From a virus, in the IMG/VR virus record IMGVR_UViG_3300010158_000036, positions 45,332 through 109,331 of that record: a DNA stretch of 64,000 nt. One strand, written 5' to 3'. Shown in pieces: positions 8,554-45,634 of this stretch. The position numbers and the translations under genes are program-made. How positions within the stretch are numbered: the first letter of the stretch is position 1; every line of letters starts with the position of its first letter. Below the pieces are notes generated by a model, which was given only the letters and a program-made list of their open reading frames with translations, was not told the origin of the DNA and searched no databases.

Positions 8554-8701
8554 AGTACAACACCAACTTCACGCAATGCATAATTAAGTTCACGATCATG
8601 AATGACCAATTTTTTAGCTTCTTCAAGATCACGACAATCCCATTCAAGAAGAATCCATGCTAGTTTATCAGCACGGTCTTTCTTTCTTTTTGCAATCTTA
8701 T

Positions 8702-8959
8702 CTATTTTATCCATGATTTATTTGTTATGATATGCTGCATTACTCGTTCAATCTCCTCTGCATATGCTCGGAAAAAATCAGCATCGGAATGACGACCCAT
8801 GGTATCTTCTTTATCCGCTTCAGATCGCATAGCTTTAGCCCATCTTATCGCGAATGTCGGATTATTAATACACTCACACATCAATCTCCAATGACGAAAT
8901 CCCAAATATATACCAAGAATTCGAACTGAGAAATAGAGGTTGATTAGTTTAAAAATCAT
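8702..8959 (-). CDS. hypothetical protein
   Basis: co-oriented ORF. Confidence 0.5.
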   Translation of the reverse strand: MIFKLINLYFSVRILGIYLGFRHWRLMCECINNPTFAIRWAKAMRSEADKEDTMGRHSDADFFRAYAEEIERVMQHIITNKSWIK

Positions 8960-9143: not shown

Positions 9144-9455
9144 TTAATTCCAGTTCACAAATTTCTTTACTTTCACTTGAAGTGCTGGTTCTTCATCATC
9201 TGCGTAGATAATCATTTGATGTTTTGTTCCAGCCTTAAGATGACAGGGCACTGCAACAAATAACGGATCTTCTTGATGATAGTTTGGAGTCATCTCAATA
9301 AGATGTGTTGCATTTGGAAATAAAGATTTCATATTAGCATCAATCTCATAAAGAGTTCTCCATGATTTCCATCCATCAATTACTACAGAATTACCTGTGG
9401 ATTTCAAGCAGGGGCGAGTCCAAGAACAACCCGTGGATGTTACGAATGTGAGCAT
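9144..9455 (-). CDS. hypothetical protein
   Basis: co-oriented ORF. Confidence 0.55.
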   Translation of the reverse strand: MLTFVTSTGCSWTRPCLKSTGNSVVIDGWKSWRTLYEIDANMKSLFPNATHLIEMTPNYHQEDPLFVAVPCHLKAGTKHQMIIYADDEEPALQVKVKKFVNWN

Positions 9456-9461
9456 ATATTT

Positions 9462-9644
9462 TTAGGAAAGTTTATACTTAATAGACAACCGATCAATCAT
9501 GTCTTCAAGCGTTTGTGCTTTAGCTAACCAGAAGAATGTTTCTTTGGATTCATGACAATTATGAACATAAAATTTCCATGTTTTAAGAGCAGTTTCCTTT
9601 TCATATTCAAGGAATTCAAGTACTTCCGATAATTCGATTTTCAT
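9462..9644 (-). CDS. hypothetical protein
   Basis: ATGA overlap with upstream ORF. Confidence 0.6.
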   Translation of the reverse strand: MKIELSEVLEFLEYEKETALKTWKFYVHNCHESKETFFWLAKAQTLEDMIDRLSIKYKLS

Positions 9645-34577: not shown

Positions 34578-35795
34578 TTAATCACGAAACGGATCTTCAA
34601 TATCATCTCCCGCCATAGCAACGCCAATCGGAGTTAAGGTATGAAGAATCTTAATAGTTTCTCCTTGAGCAGACAACACTTCATTCAATCGCTTATAGCA
34701 ATGCGGAGATTCATCAGTACCAGCACCACGAAGACAAACTCCTGCATTTTTAACCCAATCAGTCATCATAGTCTGAGATACAACTCCTTCAGACACCCGA
34801 GTCTTCTTACCCTTGATCCATTTGGAGCGACCCGCAGCCTGCGACCTAGAGAGTACGCGACCAGCTCCGTGAACTGTTGAGTACATTGCAATTTTTGATA
34901 GATCAGAATCAACACCTTCAAGAATAACAGAATCTTCTCCCATGGTACCACCAACAAATCCTTTTTGACCAGGAAATGCGGGAGTTGCTCCTTTACGATG
35001 AACCCATAAATCTTCCCCATCATGATTTTCTAACCATGCAAAGTTATGATGATTATGAACTTCTTCAAAAATTTCAACACCAAGGATTCGAGCAACTTCA
35101 GCACACACCCAGTCTCGTCCAGTGTAGGCATATTCTCCAGCTAATTTCAAGGCTGCAATATATTCACGCCCTAGATCAGAATTAACATCAAGCAAAGCAG
35201 GAGCTACATTGATGCCATCAGTGCCGCCACCAGCTTTGATATAATGAGATGCAATCTTATGTCCAAGTCCTCGTGAACCAAAGTGAACACCTACCCAGAT
35301 ACGGAGAAATTCATCATGAAAAATATCAACGTAGTGATTCCCCGACCCAACAGTACCTAACTGATTACGAGCCATATCTTTGAGATCATTGAGTAAAGGA
35401 ATATCATTCCATACAGGAGAATCAAATATAGCATGTTCATCGGGTTTCTTTTGTCTGACAATATGTTTAGAATTTGAAACACGTCCAATACCAAATGAGA
35501 TATTACGAACAATTGTATCCATGATTTTTTCAATATCCTTATGAACATCAAGGAGAGTTGCATTAGTCAGAACAGCTAAGTTTCCGCATGCACAATCAAA
35601 TCCGACTGCTGATGGAGAAATCTTATCTTTGTAAGCAATAATTCCGCCAATTGGGATGGAATAACCTAAGTGGTGATCTCCTGCCAATACAGCTTTATAT
35701 CCGCCGAAATCCATTGCAAAATCCATCTGGTCAATTGCATTTTGTAATGGTTCCCCAAAGACGGGAATATTTTTATTTTTACCTAGGAGTTGCAT
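34578..35795 (-). CDS. rtcB: RtcB-family RNA ligase
   Basis: DHH.GY..PIGG, GFDCACG, GSGNHY, HHN, HRKGAT, HGAGR, DESP..YK. Confidence 0.96.
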   Translation of the reverse strand: MQLLGKNKNIPVFGEPLQNAIDQMDFAMDFGGYKAVLAGDHHLGYSIPIGGIIAYKDKISPSAVGFDCACGNLAVLTNATLLDVHKDIEKIMDTIVRNISFGIGRVSNSKHIVRQKKPDEHAIFDSPVWNDIPLLNDLKDMARNQLGTVGSGNHYVDIFHDEFLRIWVGVHFGSRGLGHKIASHYIKAGGGTDGINVAPALLDVNSDLGREYIAALKLAGEYAYTGRDWVCAEVARILGVEIFEEVHNHHNFAWLENHDGEDLWVHRKGATPAFPGQKGFVGGTMGEDSVILEGVDSDLSKIAMYSTVHGAGRVLSRSQAAGRSKWIKGKKTRVSEGVVSQTMMTDWVKNAGVCLRGAGTDESPHCYKRLNEVLSAQGETIKILHTLTPIGVAMAGDDIEDPFRD

Positions 35796-39158: not shown

Positions 39159-39707
39159 TTAAGAGATTATTTCTAAGTCTTGATTATTAAACACAACTAC
39201 TGTATTATAACCACTTTCATTTATCATAATAGCAGAAACAGGAAGATGTTTTTTTATAATAATGTTGGATATTATCCAGTTTATTATTTCGCTGGTGGTA
39301 AAATAACCATCATCATAATCATTATTATCATATCTAGGTTCAATATGACTATCAATATTTAAATATACTTCATCTATATAACGATCACCCCCCTTAATAT
39401 CGGAAAGCACGTCTATAATAAAATCTTTTACTTCATTATAGTCAATATTATCATTTACATCAAAATCCGTTAAATCTAATACAGGTTGTGATGGAGTGAA
39501 TAATACTTTTACAAGAGCTCCACCTCGACTGGAATAATAATCAATTATTCCGTTCTTAGGTTCTGTAGCAAACCACAGTCCATGTTTTATCGGATCTATC
39601 TTAGATAATTTACTTAAACTTCCATGATATAATATCATTTCTTTAGTAGATTCCTGTAACACTGTTTCATTTAAGATATGACGAGCTACTTCAATTAATG
39701 TTTTCAT
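39159..39707 (-). CDS. ADP-ribosyltransferase-like protein (ART-PolyVal-like), late
   Basis: LYHGS, GLWFA, PVLDL, E...VVVFN; TATAAATA at 39714. Confidence 0.6.
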   Translation of the reverse strand: MKTLIEVARHILNETVLQESTKEMILYHGSLSKLSKIDPIKHGLWFATEPKNGIIDYYSSRGGALVKVLFTPSQPVLDLTDFDVNDNIDYNEVKDFIIDVLSDIKGGDRYIDEVYLNIDSHIEPRYDNNDYDDGYFTTSEIINWIISNIIIKKHLPVSAIMINESGYNTVVVFNNQDLEIIS

Positions 39708-39716
39708 ATATTCTAT

Positions 39717-40451
39717 TTATACTTGAGCTTTAAATATTGTCAAACATTTTACTGACTCAGCACCAGCTTCTTGTAATGTTTGAAAAATAGATACTAAACT
39801 TGAACCGGATGCAATAACATCATCAATGATTAACACTTTCTTACCCTCAAATTTCTTTGCATTGCCAGTATACGAAAACACATTCTTGAGAAACTTTCTG
39901 TAAGGAGGAAGAACCCATTTCATTTGAAAATACCCAAGTTTTACACCTCTCCGAATAGATGACTCTAATTTCTTAATAGTAGAATCTGATAACTTCTTTG
40001 ATTCAAGATCTAGTGTAATTTTGGAAGGATCTTCAGCTTTTACAAAAGAATCTAGAAGAAACTCAATTCCTGGATTTCTTTCTTTAATTTTCTGGGCGAA
40101 ATCTTTAGTTAAAGATGAAGATGATTTCGGAGTAACAATGATATCGACATTTAAATCTCGAATAATTTTTGTTGCATACACAGCCGATCTATTAAGAAAC
40201 TGATTATAGGCACTAACATCAATATGCATAGCTTTCAAGCGTTTAAGAATGATTGTTGCATCTGCCCCTTTTGAAGTATATAAATTAAAAACATCCAATG
40301 TAATACCTTCAATATTTTTTGTGTGTGGTTTTAATTCACTTTTACCGAATCTTAGATTGATTAGATCTCCAGCTTTAGACTCATAATCAATAATAACTTG
40401 ATTATCGGAATTCAATGTCATTGATTCCACGAATTGCAGAAATGATTTCAT
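39717..40451 (-). CDS. type I phosphoribosyltransferase-fold protein, late
   Basis: VLIIDDVIASGSS PRPP loop; likely start MKSFLQFVE after TATAAATA at 40456. Confidence 0.85.
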   Translation of the reverse strand: MKSFLQFVESMTLNSDNQVIIDYESKAGDLINLRFGKSELKPHTKNIEGITLDVFNLYTSKGADATIILKRLKAMHIDVSAYNQFLNRSAVYATKIIRDLNVDIIVTPKSSSSLTKDFAQKIKERNPGIEFLLDSFVKAEDPSKITLDLESKKLSDSTIKKLESSIRRGVKLGYFQMKWVLPPYRKFLKNVFSYTGNAKKFEGKKVLIIDDVIASGSSLVSIFQTLQEAGAESVKCLTIFKAQV

Positions 40452-40469
40452 TTTGTATTTATAAGAAAG

Positions 40470-40540
40470 TGGTGGAACTGCCGGGAATCTCACCCGGATC
40501 CACAACATTATTCATGTTATGTCGAAATAAATTCAGCCCC
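40470..40540 (-). ncRNA. minimal tmRNA: tRNA-like domain only, no tag ORF
   Basis: GGGGCUG-AAUUUAUUUCGA-CAUAACAU(GAAUA)AUGUUGUG-GAU-CCGGG(UGAGAUU)CCCGG-CAGUUCC-ACCA; G3:U70. Confidence 0.8.
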
Positions 40541-40550
40541 TTTTTTAAAA

Positions 40551-40624
40551 TGGCATAGCATGTAGGTAACGATCCCACGCCAAGAAGTTTGGAATTTCTG
40601 GTTCTACCATTGAACTAATGCTAT
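40551..40624 (-). tRNA. tRNA-Trp(CCA)
   Basis: cloverleaf, loop UU-CCA-AA, encoded CCA. Confidence 0.85.
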
Positions 40625-40633
40625 ATTTAAAAA

Positions 40634-40707
40634 TGGTCCGCGCCATGCCAACGCACATGGATAGGCAGATTCGCAGTCTGCGACATTACTCTTATGCTAC
40701 GCTCGGT
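40634..40707 (-). tRNA. atypical tRNA, anticodon GCG (Arg, or Cys-derived)
   Basis: GCAGA-CU-GCG-AA-UCUGC; imperfect acceptor stem and T-loop. Confidence 0.55.
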
Positions 40708-40714
40708 TTAAAAT

Positions 40715-40789
40715 TGGTGCCTCTAGTAGGAGTTCAACCTACTTCATCAGTTTCGAAGACTGAGGTCCTATTCGGTAGACGATAGAGGC
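40715..40789 (-). tRNA. tRNA-Arg(UCG)
   Basis: cloverleaf, CU-UCG-AA, CCA. Confidence 0.9.
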
Positions 40790-40798
40790 ATATGAAAA

Positions 40799-41023
40799 TT
40801 ACTCATTAGACAAACTATATGAATGCACTGCATTATAACCTGCAATCCAAATTCCAAGAACATGTTCAAGATTTTCTGGAGTTGTTTCAAGATTTAATTT
40901 TTTAAGAACCTTCTTAATAATATTTTTATCTACTTGAGTCAATCCCATGAAATTATGAACTAATCCACCTCTTTCTGATAAGACAGCTTCAGCGGCTTCT
41001 GATATTGATGATCGTTGTAACAT
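40799..41023 (-). CDS. small late protein in tRNA array
   Basis: TATAAATA at 41029; EAAEAVLSE motif. Confidence 0.65.
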   Translation of the reverse strand: MLQRSSISEAAEAVLSERGGLVHNFMGLTQVDKNIIKKVLKKLNLETTPENLEHVLGIWIAGYNAVHSYSLSNE

Positions 41024-41178
41024 AATATTATTTATATATTTTGAGAAACTTTCTATTGCTGGATAGAACATGAAATTAATTCCTATGTCCTGAATCTAAC
41101 AGATCAAGATAAGGCATACAAGCCACAAGCTACCCGTTCTACATATAGTGTCGGACCTCTTGAATAACATAAGAAAAA

Positions 41179-41254
41179 TGGCGGAACCGACCAGTTTTGA
41201 TCTGGCTGCCTCCTAAGTGACAGTTAGGTGCTCTCCCGATTGAGCTACGGTTCC
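41179..41254 (-). tRNA. tRNA-Asp(GUC)
   Basis: cloverleaf, CU-GUC-AC, G73, CCA. Confidence 0.92.
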
Positions 41255-41260
41255 GTAAAG

Positions 41261-41335
41261 TGGTCCCGGTGGAGAATTTTGAAATCTCAACCTATCGCTT
41301 ATCGAGCAATTACTCTGCCTTTGAGTTACACCGGG
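41261..41335 (-). tRNA. tRNA-Ile(GAU)
   Basis: cloverleaf, UC-GAU-AA (C33), CCA. Confidence 0.85.
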
Positions 41336-41345
41336 AATTAAAAAG

Positions 41346-41419
41346 TGGTACTCCTAACCGGGCACGATCCGGTCTCTAATCCTTGAAAGGGATTTGTTCT
41401 ACCGCTAAACTATAGGAGC
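41346..41419 (-). tRNA. tRNA-Glu(UUC)
   Basis: cloverleaf, CU-UUC-AA, CCA. Confidence 0.9.
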
Positions 41420-41434
41420 ATATTGAAAATTTAA

Positions 41435-41536
41435 TTAGTGTTGAAAGAATCAAACTTTCTCTTCAGTAATTGTTTACTAATCCTATCGGACAAGAAACCC
41501 TTTGCTAGGGGCGTGCTATCATTACACTAAACACTA
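41435..41536 (-). ncRNA. tRNA-like RNA lacking a normal anticodon loop, two extra hairpins
   Basis: 7-bp acceptor, D-arm, T-arm GAAAG-UUUGAUU-CUUUC; CCCU-AGCAA-AGGG in anticodon position. Confidence 0.6.
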
Positions 41537-41539
41537 AAT

Positions 41540-41631
41540 TGGCGGAAGAAGTGAGATTTGAACTCACGGGAGTTTTAAGGCTCCTCTAGTTTTCAAGACT
41601 AGCGCAATAAACCAGGCTCTGCCATCCTTCC
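41540..41631 (-). tRNA. tRNA-Ser(UGA)
   Basis: long variable arm, CU-UGA-AA, CCA. Confidence 0.93.
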
Positions 41632-41639
41632 ATTAAAAT

Positions 41640-41713
41640 TGGTGCCCCTAGCAGGAATTAAACCTACGTTCTCGCTTTAGAAGAGCGGAGTCCTTTCATT
41701 AGACGATAAGGGC
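41640..41713 (-). tRNA. tRNA-Arg(UCU)
   Basis: cloverleaf, CU-UCU-AA, CCA. Confidence 0.9.
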
Positions 41714-41726
41714 CATATATTAAAAT

Positions 41727-41801
41727 TGGTACACCCGCCGATAATCGAAATCGGTTAGTCGGATTAAAAGTCCGGTACATCGCCAGCAATGTTTCGAGTG
41801 C
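41727..41801 (-). tRNA. tRNA-Lys(UUU)
   Basis: cloverleaf, CU-UUU-AA, CCA. Confidence 0.88.
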
Positions 41802-41829
41802 ATTTTTGAAAATTAAAAAAGATGATATT

Positions 41830-41891
41830 GTGAGTGCAGATTTGAACTGCTCTTCCCCTTAGGATGTGCTTCCGAGTTACACCATATTCAC
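41830..41891 (-). ncRNA. tRNA-like RNA with shortened anticodon arm
   Basis: D-arm GUGU/GCAC, UCCU-AAG-GGGA, T-arm GCAG-UUCAAAU-CUGC. Confidence 0.5.
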
Positions 41892-41900
41892 TCATCATCA

Positions 41901-41966
41901 GAGAGTCACTCAAACATTTGTACTTCATGTTTGGCATTGGTAATTACTCAATGCAAAGTGACTCTC
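41901..41966. ncRNA. three-way-junction RNA candidate
   Basis: GAGAGTCACT/AGTGACTCTC enclosing two hairpins. Confidence 0.5.
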
Positions 41967-41977
41967 GTTAAAATTAA

Positions 41978-42154
41978 TTCTGTATGTATATGAACTTTTC
42001 TACGCCTCTTCGGTTTTAACTACTTTGCAGTTTATTAGGAATTGCGAACCTAATAAGAGTATTCGTTATTAATCTAAAGGAACTCATCGCATTGAGTTTC
42101 TCCAACGTATTTCATTGTTTGTACCTTATTGCTAAGGTTTTTTGCCATACAGAA
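41978..42154 (-). ncRNA. ~175-nt multi-hairpin RNA candidate
   Basis: TTCTGTATG/CATACAGAA ends, four internal hairpins including a GCAA loop. Confidence 0.5.
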
Positions 42155-42161
42155 AAAGGGA

Positions 42162-42233
42162 CTCCCAAGGTTGGTAACGCTCCAACTACCTAGTGTTTAA
42201 CAGACACCCGCTCTGCTAGTGAGCTACTTGGGA
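42162..42233 (-). tRNA. tRNA-Asn(GUU)
   Basis: cloverleaf, CU-GUU-AA, no encoded CCA. Confidence 0.88.
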
Positions 42234-42241
42234 TTTAAAAA

Positions 42242-42328
42242 TGGTGGGTACCGGACGTTACGCTCGTCTCCCCCGTGAAAGGAAGTGTTTTACAGACACT
42301 CTTCAGGAACTACCTGATTTCGTTACCC
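42242..42328 (-). tRNA. tRNA-Tyr(GUA)
   Basis: CU-GUA-AA, long variable arm, CCA; atypical D/T loops. Confidence 0.75.
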
Positions 42329-42360
42329 ATGAAAGTTATTTATACAGAAAGAAAGTGGCA

Positions 42361-42447
42361 AGCTGAAGGTGAGATTCGAACTCACGTGAGGAATTGAATC
42401 CTTCCTGATTACAAAACAGGCGCCATCGACCACTAAGCGACTCCAGC
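42361..42447 (-). tRNA. tRNA-Thr(UGU) with long variable arm
   Basis: GCUGGAG/CUUCAGC, UU-UGU-AA, AGGA-UUCAAU-UCCU arm, UUCGAAU T-loop. Confidence 0.8.
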
Positions 42448-43146
42448 ATTATTATATAATTCAAAAAATTTCTTAAAAATAGGACCATTAAAGGATATAC
42501 CTATAGTACTAAATGCTTTACTCAAAACCCCATGTTTATCGTACTCTATTTTAAGGGCTTCAAAATTATCTTTAACTATATTAGGTTTTGCTAAACATTC
42601 ACACTTTCTAGAACAAAATCGCCTGGGGTATTTATTGGCAAATCGTTTTGAACAATTATCACATATATATTGAAGCTCGAATTCTTTCCACTTATTACGA
42701 CCTTTCACCCACCCAACAGGTATCGGAATCAATCTATTTACGCAAATATTTTCTTTTAATTCTATATTCGATATAAAATGATTTCCGAAATTTGGGTTAC
42801 GGTCTCCTTTATTTGCTATTTTCATTATCTCAGATGTATATTTCGCGCATTCAATCCTAATCCATTCATACAATCTGGCCGATTTTATAAAAGGTTTATC
42901 AGGATCATTCGAATTCTTTCTTTGCATATTATGCAGTGCGAATGAATTTTGAGAGCATCTTTGAAATCTTGCAAGTAACAAATGAGCCATATAATGTTCT
43001 CTCGCAGTCAAATTTACTCTATTGTGTTTATCATCAGAACCACCTAAAGATGATGGGATTATATGATGATTTTCCTTGTATCCAGAAGTTACTGGATTTT
43101 GTTGCCGATTTAATATAAGATCGTTATAGATTTTTTCATAGTTCAT
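42433..43146 (-). CDS. HNH homing endonuclease (MobE-like)
   Basis: MNY.KIY..LI, ENHHIIP.SLGGSD...N.V.LTAREH..AH.LL; CxxC..FCS..C; TATAAATA at 43153. Confidence 0.9.
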   Translation of the reverse strand: MNYEKIYNDLILNRQQNPVTSGYKENHHIIPSSLGGSDDKHNRVNLTAREHYMAHLLLARFQRCSQNSFALHNMQRKNSNDPDKPFIKSARLYEWIRIECAKYTSEIMKIANKGDRNPNFGNHFISNIELKENICVNRLIPIPVGWVKGRNKWKEFELQYICDNCSKRFANKYPRRFCSRKCECLAKPNIVKDNFEALKIEYDKHGVLSKAFSTIGISFNGPIFKKFFELYNNAGVA

Positions 43147-43170
43147 ATAATCTATTTATACTGAACTTAC

Positions 43171-43245
43171 ACTACCAAATTACAAATATTGCACTGCACT
43201 AGCCGGAGTACAAAACCGGTTCATCGCTATCTATGATTTGGAAGC
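43171..43245 (-). tRNA. degenerate tRNA-Thr(UGU) upstream of HNH gene
   Basis: CCGG-UUUUGUACU-CCGG arm and D-arm intact, 3' half eroded. Confidence 0.55.
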
Positions 43246-43335
43246 ATATAGAAAATGTTCGAGTTGCAGTTTAATGCTGTAGGGACCCGTCGCTCCTGTA
43301 AGGCAATGCACCACACATTGCAGATTATTTGAAAA

Positions 43336-43412
43336 TGGTTGCGGATGCATTCTCTGCCCATGCGATCTTCGCCTTATGAGGACGACGAGATGACTGGATT
43401 CTCCAATCCGCG
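43336..43412 (-). tRNA. tRNA-Met(CAU), initiator-like
   Basis: C1:A72 mismatch, CU-CAU-AA, CCA; atypical T-loop. Confidence 0.8.
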
Positions 43413-43440
43413 ATTATAGTTATTTATATCAAACAAAAAA

Positions 43441-43515
43441 TGGTCCCCCCGGTTGGTGCTGCCCCAACGACCTACCGATTATGAGTCGGGTGCTCTCCTG
43501 TTGAGCTACAGGGGG
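43441..43515 (-). tRNA. tRNA(CAU), elongator Met or Ile2
   Basis: cloverleaf, CU-CAU-AA, CCA. Confidence 0.88.
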
Positions 43516-43701
43516 ATATATATAACCTCTGAGGATTCCTGTACCCCGATTATTTCATACCGACCGAGTTATGTCGGAATCTTGAATGTTTTCTCTGTGA
43601 TTGATTCGAACAATCCCATCTTTCATCGTCACTCTATACTGCAAGGACGAGTTGAACGTCACCAATGTGTCATATTGCTCACCATGAGCTTCAAAGAAAA
43701 T

Positions 43702-43789
43702 TGGTACCGATGACGCGATTTGAACACACAAACTATTTAAAACGTGGGTTTTTAAGACCCAAGTGTATTTCCAGTTCCAACACATCGGT
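43702..43789 (-). tRNA. tRNA-Leu(UAA)
   Basis: CU-UAA-AA, long variable arm, CCA. Confidence 0.85.
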
Positions 43790-43804
43790 ATTTATTATAG
43801 AAAT

Positions 43805-43888
43805 TGGTGACCTGGATATCTCGTCATTATTACAATCAAGCGACCATCTTCTGGGTTTATTCGCTTTTATTTTGTGCAGACGCAGATC
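43805..43888 (-). ncRNA. CCA-ended non-tRNA small RNA candidate
   Basis: GAUCUG/CAGGUC-A-CCA closing stem, no cloverleaf. Confidence 0.4.
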
Positions 43889-43965
43889 ATTTATTATAGA
43901 AATTGGTTGGCTGGAACACATATTCATTTAACCCAGGTAATCAATGGGCACCATTATTTAATAAG

Positions 43966-44040
43966 TTGAGATATGGAAGATTCGAACTTCCTTGGGTAGC
44001 TGCGAAAGGCTACATGGTTGAGCTTGTCACCGGGCTTTTT
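43966..44040 (-). ncRNA. degenerate tRNA-like (Glu-like) sequence
   Basis: GUAGC-CUUUCGCA-GCUAC arm and GGAAG-UUCGAAU-CUUCC T-arm. Confidence 0.45.
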
Positions 44041-44231: not shown

Positions 44232-44278
44232 GCTTACGGGCTTATTGTAACAGGTTTTTACAAACTTGTAAACAATAA
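44232..44278 (-). promoter_or_regulatory. tRNA-operon promoter (repeat family)
   Basis: GTTTACA-N17-TACAAT-AAGCCCGTAAG. Confidence 0.85.
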
Positions 44279-44881: not shown

Positions 44882-45634
44882 TCAGTCCTCTGTGGATTCT
44901 GAAGTGCTCATAGCAGCATTTCTTTGAGCCATCGTAGAAAATCCTCCAGATTTCCTTTTCATATCTTTGAGGATTGCTTCGATATTATCACCGCCCTTGG
45001 CAGCTTTTATAATATCCCTATCCCGAGAAGACAATTTTGCTCCAGGATTTTCATGAGCAATTGTAATAATTTTCTTAATTTCAGCTGCCGTCAATTCCTT
45101 TACCTCGTTTCCGTCAAGATCATTTACATCATCTCCATAATGATTATAGAATTTAGAATCAATACCTGCCCAATAGAAATCCTTGAGTTTTAGATTTGTC
45201 TTCAGAGATTCTAGATTCTCTTTTGTAATATCTTTTTCTCTACACCAAAAGACAATCACAGTATGAGAAATATTTTTCGTCCAAATACGACCCGACTTAG
45301 TTGAAATTTTTGAATTACCATTAGTTATATTATCTATATTCTGTTTATCTATAGCATAGTCTGTATCTTTATCCGATAATTCTCCAAAACGTTTCAGATC
45401 TTTAGTTTTATAATTGGTAATAATATCCTGATATAAATTATTATGAGTTTCAAAGGGTCCAGAATTATAAACCAAGATCTCATCTGGTCCAATAAACCCA
45501 AAGGGACCTAATGATTCATGCCACCTAAAAACTTTACCATCAAAATAAGCTTTATCTGGTGTTGAATTATAAGCATTAAATTTCTTACTTGATTCGGATA
45601 AAATAGATAAAGCTTTTTTGATAATAGAATTCAT
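44882..45634 (-). CDS. late protein, paralog of 54287..55147
   Basis: SGRIW...VIVFWC.E.DI, FYW...DSKF; TATAAATA at 45641. Confidence 0.75.
   Translation of the reverse strand: MNSIIKKALSILSESSKKFNAYNSTPDKAYFDGKVFRWHESLGPFGFIGPDEILVYNSGPFETHNNLYQDIITNYKTKDLKRFGELSDKDTDYAIDKQNIDNITNGNSKISTKSGRIWTKNISHTVIVFWCREKDITKENLESLKTNLKLKDFYWAGIDSKFYNHYGDDVNDLDGNEVKELTAAEIKKIITIAHENPGAKLSSRDRDIIKAAKGGDNIEAILKDMKRKSGGFSTMAQRNAAMSTSESTED

Follow-up and report, generated by a model that had tools for sequence, protein, structure and literature searches.

A probable stand-alone tRNA-like domain of tmRNA at the end of a freshwater phage tRNA array, and its relatives in viral contigs

Does the 71-nt segment that closes a phage tRNA array encode a tmRNA reduced to its tRNA-like domain (TLD), and what might a phage gain from such a molecule? 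The segment lies in the window, by which we mean the whole stretch of 64,000 nucleotides analysed here (positions 45,332 to 109,331 of IMG/VR virus record IMGVR_UViG_3300010158_000036). It is carried by an uncultured freshwater phage, AT-rich (34% GC) and represented by a record about 53% complete. The original prediction, made from the letters of the DNA, had read the segment as a TLD with no tag frame, sitting as a discrete unit in a tRNA operon, and its transcription of the minus strand from 40470 to 40540 is identical to ours, letter by letter.

The 71-nt element and its relation to tmRNA

The element divides into the following parts, with RNA positions counted from its 5' end.

40470..40540, minus strand: very probable mini-tmRNA (TLD-only) gene, 71 nt, 3' CCA encoded; recognised by sequence, fold, the Rfam tmRNA model RF00023 and our covariance model R1
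40534..40540, minus strand: 5' strand of the acceptor stem, GGGGCUG, RNA positions 1-7; its partner is 40474-40480 and the stem includes G3:U70 and G4:U69
40522..40533, minus strand: stemless D-loop AAUUUAUUUCGA, positions 8-19; the tmRNA motif UUCGA(C) is kept and the usual GG is absent
40501..40521, minus strand: helix 2a equivalent, an 8-bp stem of positions 20-27 with 33-40, from the fold
40509-40513, minus strand: cap loop GAAUA, 5 nt, positions 28-32, from the fold
40498..40500, minus strand: connector GAU, positions 41-43; with G40 it is the counterpart of the tmRNA GGAC motif before the T-arm (alignment A4; Rfam consensus ...GGACGcGGG...)
40481..40497, minus strand: T-arm with a 5-bp stem, CCGGG/CCCGG, from the fold; non-canonical 7-nt loop UGAGAUU at 40486-40492
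40474-40480, minus strand: 3' strand of the acceptor stem, CAGUUCC, from sequence and fold
40470-40473, minus strand: discriminator A73 and CCA, from sequence and fold

When the sequence is folded alone, the proposed structure (7-bp acceptor, 12-nt unpaired D-loop, 8-bp capped helix, GAU, 5-bp T-stem and ACCA tail) is both the minimum-free-energy and the centroid fold, at -25 kcal/mol; it accounts for 71% of the ensemble, and against shuffled sequences z = -2.8. The three helices keep every one of their 20 base pairs, two adjacent G:U pairs (G3:U70 and G4:U69) stand in the acceptor stem, and the alanine identity set, G3:U70 with A73 on a 7-bp acceptor, is present together with the CCA. Since this closed three-helix structure takes up the 71 nt, it leaves no space for a tag reading frame or for pseudoknots, and the absence of a tag ORF and of an mRNA-like domain that had been claimed from the letters is borne out here as well as by the alignment to RF00023, in which the middle of the model is deleted.

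A search of the whole 109-kb record with RF00023 matched the element at 32.9 bits (E 6.6e-13) over model positions 1-374, with both tmRNA termini aligned and the ~300-nt middle deleted; this score lies below the gathering cut-off of 47 bits, and the same search returned no full-length tmRNA elsewhere in the record. The Rfam consensus termini, GGGGguGAucuGGaUUCGAC (the 5' end) ... GGACGcGGGUUCGAuUCCCgCCacCUCCACCA, bear out the resemblance noted in the original prediction: the 5' end of the element (GGGGCUGA...UUCGAC) and its 3' end (GGA-N-T-arm-CAGYUCCACCA) both fit the consensus, and the alanine identity elements are common to SsrA and the element. We also trained a covariance model, R1, on eight viral members of the family described below plus the TLD of Mycobacterium phage DS6A, with the element's own sequence excluded. 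R1 gave the element 51.9 bits (E 3.6e-10), whereas true tRNAs reached at best 27.4 bits in 248 kb and 18.7 in the window. The RF00023 search and the covariance model had both been proposed as checks, and both recover the element; the TLD hallmarks named beforehand are thus seen in the fold, in two independent covariance models and in family-wide covariation. Because the two models and the covariation support the same identification, we consider the element very probably a stand-alone TLD-only (tag-less) derivative of tmRNA, of the DS6A type.

Several other classes were tried and rejected. A full bacterial tmRNA (SsrA, RF00023) is set apart by its mRNA-like domain, resume codon, tag frame, stop codon, PK1-PK4 and helices 2b-2d, about 300 nt that the element lacks, in addition to the score below cut-off. 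A tRNA-Ala (RF00005) does not fit, as there is no D-stem and the central hairpin has 8 bp and the 5-nt loop GAAUA; neither ARAGORN nor RF00005 calls the element. A two-piece permuted tmRNA (RF04321, RF01849) is contradicted by the standard order 5'-GGGG...ACCA-3', and the permuted models give only sub-threshold partial matches (14.2 and 11.8 bits), in agreement with the earlier statement that the layout is not permuted. A second RF00023 match in the record (42368-42404, 15 bits) is part of tRNA-Thr.

The original prediction had also offered a TLD-only phage tmRNA as a possible novelty, and on this point it gives way to the literature. Phage DS6A was listed as carrying a 'TLD only' tmRNA by Hudson, Lau and Williams 2014 (PMC4131195), and Mao et al. 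2009, as cited in PMC4131195 and PMC11915505, are credited there with the observation that a DS6A-like TLD-only molecule, chargeable or not, strongly inhibits tmRNA in E. coli, according to the same accounts perhaps through titration of SmpB. The DS6A entry of the tmRNA Website (tmID 11587 / Phage__Mycobacterium.9) is classed as 'standard, no CDS', as are nine sequences among the 97,179 of the 2025 tmRNA database, across all of life (PMC11915505). The kind of molecule is already known, and the element is a further, minimal and divergent member of it.

We located the DS6A TLD at JN698994 28478-28560, where RF00023 gives 43.2 bits in the same search and mode as used for the element. The two RNAs are alike in being phage-encoded, in standard order, shorter than 90 nt, and without tag frame or pseudoknots; both have an acceptor stem with G3:U70 and A73, a stemless D-loop ending in (U/G)UCGAC, a helix 2a closed by a cap, and a T-arm after a short connector. 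In both, RF00023 spans model positions 1-374 with the middle deleted; they fall into one covariance-model family, and in both cases RtcB is encoded and no SmpB was found in the sequence searched. They differ in that the DS6A molecule has 83 nt, with an inner helix-2b-like insert (GAAAACC..GCGGUAC), a D-loop GG and a canonical UUCGAUU T-loop, none of which is found in the 71-nt element; it ends in ACUA with no encoded CCA, whereas the element encodes its CCA; and its gene stands by itself in a temperate actinophage of 60 kb, whereas the element sits in the tRNA array of a large AT-rich freshwater phage.

Two further groups invite comparison. The tag-less organellar tmRNAs (jakobid and oomycete mitochondria, RF02544; plastids of Mallomonadaceae, in which CDS-less forms measure ~65 bp) likewise consist of little beyond the TLD, have no tag frame and are presumed to act with SmpB, adding alanine at most (PMC11915505). 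Unlike the element, they are organellar, usually permuted and served by a dedicated nucleus-encoded SmpB, and the mitochondrial tag-less class is ruled out for our locus, since RF02544 has no match to the element at E <= 10 (its best match elsewhere in the record reaches 18 bits against a cut-off of 65). Synthetic TLD fragments share the acceptor, D-loop, T-arm and a helix 2a closed by a short loop, and bind SmpB 1:1 (Gutmann et al. 2003 and Bessho et al. 2007, as cited in PMC3022190); these are laboratory constructs from bacterial tmRNAs with canonical elbows, whereas the loops of the element have diverged and its SmpB binding is putative.

The setting of the element within the window is given by the following features.

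40551..43789, minus strand: co-oriented tRNA array whose last unit is the element; ARAGORN calls eight tRNAs (Leu, Thr, Asn, Ser, Glu, Asp, Arg, Trp)
within 40551..43789, minus strand: three further tRNAs of the array, called by Rfam only
44244-44272, minus strand: promoter-like site
42433-43146, minus strand: homing-endonuclease gene (PHROG 655, HNH/GIY-type), inserted in the array between tRNA genes
39717..40451, minus strand: downstream co-oriented ORF of 244 aa with a phosphoribosyltransferase domain, starting 18 nt after the CCA of the element; context only
34578-35795, minus strand: RtcB-type RNA ligase, 4.7 kb downstream of the tRNA array

Beyond these genes, the window holds an NAD-dependent DNA ligase and a ribonucleotide reductase, the latter nearest to those of 642-735-kb metagenomic phages. 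A spacer of 10 nt separates the start of the element from the CCA of the co-oriented tRNA-Trp; the element encodes its own CCA as the neighbouring tRNA does, and in this sense the discrete unit of the tRNA operon described beforehand is the last unit of a co-oriented array. We found no terminator-like site between it and the 244-aa ORF. At gathering thresholds Rfam reports ten tRNAs and nothing at the position of the element, which ARAGORN does not call either; for this locus, our result is chiefly an annotation correction, a real small-RNA gene having been missed by ARAGORN and by the Rfam thresholds. [quoted passage not shown]

A family of TLD-only RNAs in viral contigs

With a pattern that asked for three tmRNA features in at most 90 nt, namely the 5' start, UUCGA and the acceptor's 3' strand (the acceptor stem being fixed by the pattern), we found 14 viral contigs with RNAs of 65-84 nt that share the architecture of the element; in seven, the RNA is embedded in a tRNA array and has the orientation of the tRNAs. 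In an alignment of the members only, standard pairs fill 97% of the cells, against 37-54% for controls with slid partners, and the family alignment has compensatory changes in 11 out of 11 pairs, namely all six modelled pairs of P2a (helix 2a) and all five of the T-stem. A second scan of viral contigs, anchored on the D-loop and T-loop motifs only and leaving the acceptor unconstrained, returned at least 120 loci, and the family accordingly numbers at least 120 viral contigs with a member. Among the matches listed, the 7-bp acceptor stem is perfect in 115/123 and the T-stem in 116/123. The original prediction had raised the possibility of a simple deletion relic, to be recognised by short forms that do not recur; short forms recur widely, over these 120 or more loci, which favours a real class.

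The unconstrained scan is also informative on alanine identity. Acceptor positions 4-7 covary freely among the matches listed (GGGGCUG, GGGGGUG, GGGCCUG, GGGGCAG, GGGGUAG and others), while G1-G3, G3:U70 and A73 are retained in 116 of 120 of them and the A-C start of the tail is fixed. That G3:U70 and A73 are kept while pairs 4-7 covary, in a scan that placed no constraint on the acceptor, argues for selection on recognition by AlaRS, and hence on alanine charging, beyond mere shape. The CCA end is encoded in many members, including the 71-nt element.

These RNAs are largely invisible to standard annotation. ARAGORN misses 113 of the 116 well-formed members among the matches listed; only 23 of these well-formed members have any tRNA nearby, and 21/116 lie in or beside tRNA arrays, 20 of the 21 on the same strand. 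One canonical member scores 63.4 bits against RF00023, above the cut-off, with 312 model positions deleted. The TLD-only class is common in phages, mostly unannotated, and far commoner than the literature suggests, with at least 120 viral loci in one motif scan against nine database sequences (PMC11915505); our literature search found no description of a broad phage family of TLD-only tmRNAs.

Most members of about 80 nt (L001, L009, L002 and others), and DS6A, carry a conserved inner motif between the strands of helix 2a, made of RAAARCC, a short hairpin and a purine-rich 3' side (alignment A4), which the Rfam alignment treats as an unaligned 18-nt insert. Its 5' side may resemble the strand that forms the 5' half of helices 2b-2c in the tmRNA of E. 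coli. The motif is absent from the 71-nt element, which is the most reduced form, with a plain 8-bp hairpin where DS6A and most members have the helix-2b-like insert.

Family members occur in contexts as different as tRNA arrays and a portal-protease-capsid operon. Neighbours recur in one phage lineage only, where they are head-morphogenesis genes, and we rejected the idea of a conserved neighbour protein acting as a partner. In that lineage, about 27 loci among the matches listed (e.g. L025 5600-10350) have the mini-tmRNA in the head-morphogenesis operon, co-oriented, with the prohead protease ~230 nt upstream and the major capsid gene ~120 nt downstream; such a position is unusual for a tRNA-like gene and implies late, high-level co-transcription. 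In a different contig, L010, two mini-tmRNA-like genes stand ~700 nt apart in a tRNA array (8646-8723 and 9437-9509, both on the plus strand), one of them canonical (61.7 bits) and the other diverged (36.2 bits), ending in AUCA and with an altered D-loop.

A possible competitor of host tmRNA

What such an RNA might do follows from what is known of its bacterial counterpart, in which the TLD is the region bound by SmpB, alanylation is stimulated by SmpB, and Ala-TLD with SmpB mimics an aminoacyl-tRNA entering the empty A site (PMC3022190). Our main reading, to which we give a probability of roughly 0.55, is that the element, charged with alanine and dependent on SmpB, competes with host tmRNA and uncouples rescue from tagging. 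Here we infer each of processing, charging, SmpB binding, ribosome entry and phage benefit. The RNA would be transcribed together with the phage tRNA array, excised by host tRNA-processing enzymes and charged with alanine by host AlaRS through G3:U70 and A73. Host SmpB would bind it at the D-loop/helix-2a side, and the RNA would vie with the tmRNA of the host for SmpB, for EF-Tu and for the vacant A site in stalled ribosomes. With no resume codon or tag frame, nascent chains would be left without the SsrA degradation tag and tmRNA-coupled mRNA decay would not be triggered; the ribosome might then be freed by host back-up factors after the addition of a bare alanine, or host trans-translation might simply be blocked. 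The main argument that charging matters is the retention of G3:U70 and A73 against a covarying stem. Charging may also be dispensable, since inhibition by a TLD-only molecule did not require chargeability in the account given by Hudson et al. 2014 (PMC4131195).

We found no gene for SmpB, ArfB/RF-1 or Pth in the record, an absence that weighs little at about 53% completeness, and no phage SmpB in 14 other carrier records; the search for smpB elsewhere in the genome that the original prediction had called for has thus come out negative, and any such factor would be that of the host. The lack of an ArfB/RF-1 or Pth gene that could release peptidyl-Ala-TLD is counted against the mechanism, with the same reserve about completeness. 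The two mechanisms put forward in that prediction, sequestration of SmpB and codon-independent donation of alanine with SmpB, seem reasonable, and the literature makes matching proposals both for the DS6A molecule and for tag-less tmRNAs of mitochondria (PMC4131195, PMC11915505). A link of the element to host anticodon nucleases is speculation.

If SmpB sequestration were the whole story, the RNA would be a pure sponge for host SmpB (perhaps also RNase R), charging and ribosome entry would be irrelevant, and the phage would benefit from shutting off trans-translation with its tagging and mRNA decay. This has been published as an idea, with the E. coli experiment on a DS6A-like RNA reported in PMC4131195 and PMC11915505 behind it; the TLD is the SmpB-binding domain (PMC3022190), and the absence of phage SmpB from this record and the 14 others fits it too. 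Yet a sponge needs no alanine identity, and G1-G2, G3:U70 and A73 are kept, in the 116 of 120 listed matches given above, while the rest of the acceptor covaries; many members, the element included, encode their CCA; and the element has lost its canonical elbow motifs, which would be odd if tight binding of SmpB were its sole job. We hold the pure sponge to be unlikely. The conserved alanine identity hints that charging matters, whereas the published SmpB-titration idea does not require it.

There is also a broader view of the family, which we put forward tentatively and as rather doubtful: phage mini-tmRNAs might be alanine-charged, tag-free ribosome rescuers selected in phages, and not mere SmpB sponges. 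Such a rescuer would enter the stalled ribosome together with the SmpB of the host, add one alanine as a cap to the nascent chain and let the ribosome be recycled, so that phage proteins would be spared SsrA-directed proteolysis and phage mRNAs spared tmRNA-coupled decay. The gain would be greatest where non-stop complexes are numerous, owing to host nucleases or to heavy late expression. Its footprints could be the near-universal G3:U70 and A73 in a covarying acceptor and the copy that one lineage places directly upstream of the major capsid gene. If it is true that mini-tmRNAs uncouple rescue from tagging, phages would have in them a simple and widespread means of acting on host translation quality control, and the study of SmpB-TLD entry into the ribosome would have a natural minimal substrate.

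Relatives, divergent loops and strain variants

The element stands apart from most of its family in its loops, as the D-loop GG and the canonical T-loop (UUCRA; usual UUCRAnU) are both lost. In 16 aligned sequences, GG and the T-loop motif are kept or lost jointly, with four joint losses including that of the element (Fisher p about 0.01); row L008 had been mis-scored by the alignment, and corrected scoring makes the association stronger. Because three other members share the joint loss, with stems intact, it marks a variant and not an exclusion from the DS6A-type class, and it suggests a tolerated alternative form. Since the D-loop GG and the T-loop UUCRA build the tRNA elbow, the region that SmpB is described as contacting, the SmpB binding of the element could be weakened. 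Its own T-loop type has no relatives in the sets we scanned: a search of viral contigs for a sub-family with the UGAGAUU T-loop and connector gave 13 matches, none of them tRNA-like, and among 185,579 species genomes we found no bacterial tmRNA with this loop, the scan returning one match by chance within coding sequence and, from a Polaromonas MAG, a 3'-end fragment standing alone; we infer no host from these.

A variant strain is present in run X5, an independent 2025 aquatic DNA metagenome, and it keeps the mini-tmRNA gene. Two differences from the element could be located, both in loops (G52>A in the T-loop and an extra A in the cap loop); the short contig has three further mismatches at positions that were not located. 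A T-loop that is unique and differs between strains is consistent with relaxed constraint.

Searches for closer relatives reached little. Among 50,697 phage records, megablast of 39500-44000 and blastn of the element gave, as far as cultured-phage relatives are concerned, tRNA-level or chance matches only, along with likely attP sites and the 3' termini of genuine mycobacteriophage tmRNAs; two other family members used as blastn queries gave nothing in these records, and the downstream ORF with its phosphoribosyltransferase domain led to no relatives in viral contigs. In 80 RtcB-related loci R1 found no mini-tmRNA, its matches of 37 bits or less being ordinary tRNAs, and Rfam, applied to 7 of the 10 closest RtcB loci (59-71% identity), found no tmRNA in them. 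A full-length tmRNA at this spot in close relatives, which the original prediction had named as a sign of simple deletion, was encountered in none of the RtcB-related relatives reached; for this lineage we could demonstrate neither a full-length gene in this position nor a short form conserved among sister phages.

These observations bear on the reading of the element as a decaying or neutral relic, that is, an acquired tmRNA or mini-tmRNA gene that drifts and is no longer useful. It is a singleton whose T-loop/connector type occurs in no other viral contig, it is absent near RtcB in the RtcB-related phages (including L139, with an array of 16 tRNAs), both elbow motifs are gone, the T-loop and cap loop differ between two strains, and the score falls below the Rfam tmRNA cut-off. 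Random decay would, on the other hand, hit stems about as often as loops, and all 20 pairs are intact together with G3:U70, A73 and CCA; both located strain differences are in loops, the spacing and CCA are like those of the functional tRNAs alongside, and the joint loss of GG and T-loop with intact stems recurs in the three other members. We regard a relic as improbable, more so than the sponge.

RtcB itself deserves a comment, as it is encoded both by the phage of the element and by DS6A (gp76). We rejected it as a functional partner, because it is absent from 14 other carrier records, one of them a complete genome (0/14), and RtcB-bearing relatives lack the RNA. The same counts weigh on a different mimicry role, in which the RNA would be a decoy for host defences directed at tRNA or tmRNA (nucleases, or sensors with SmpB-like domains) or an anticodon-less donor of alanine for non-ribosomal transfer. 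CoCoNuTs are defence systems whose SmpB-like OB-fold domains are predicted to bind tmRNA (PMC11090510), the same source cites tmRNA as the commonest target of RtcB in bacteria, and a non-ribosomal donor would likewise fit the conserved alanine identity; besides the distribution of RtcB, the lack of a conserved partner protein beside family members speaks against such roles, which we rank as the least likely of the explanations considered here, slightly behind the relic. The SmpB-dependent competitor of host tmRNA remains our preferred reading of the element.

Two minor observations concern the array itself. The 90-nt gap between tRNA-Arg and tRNA-Trp contains a tRNA-like sequence at 40637-40706 on the minus strand, which RF00005 scores at 24.5 bits, below its cut-off of 29. 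CUGCGAA may be its anticodon loop, and its fold does not surpass that of shuffled sequences (z = +0.7); we take it for a probable degenerate tRNA, called by neither ARAGORN nor Rfam. The X5 variant strain skips 85 nt within 41256-41342, including the Rfam-only tRNA at 41264-41335, so that closely related strains carry different sets of tRNAs in this array.
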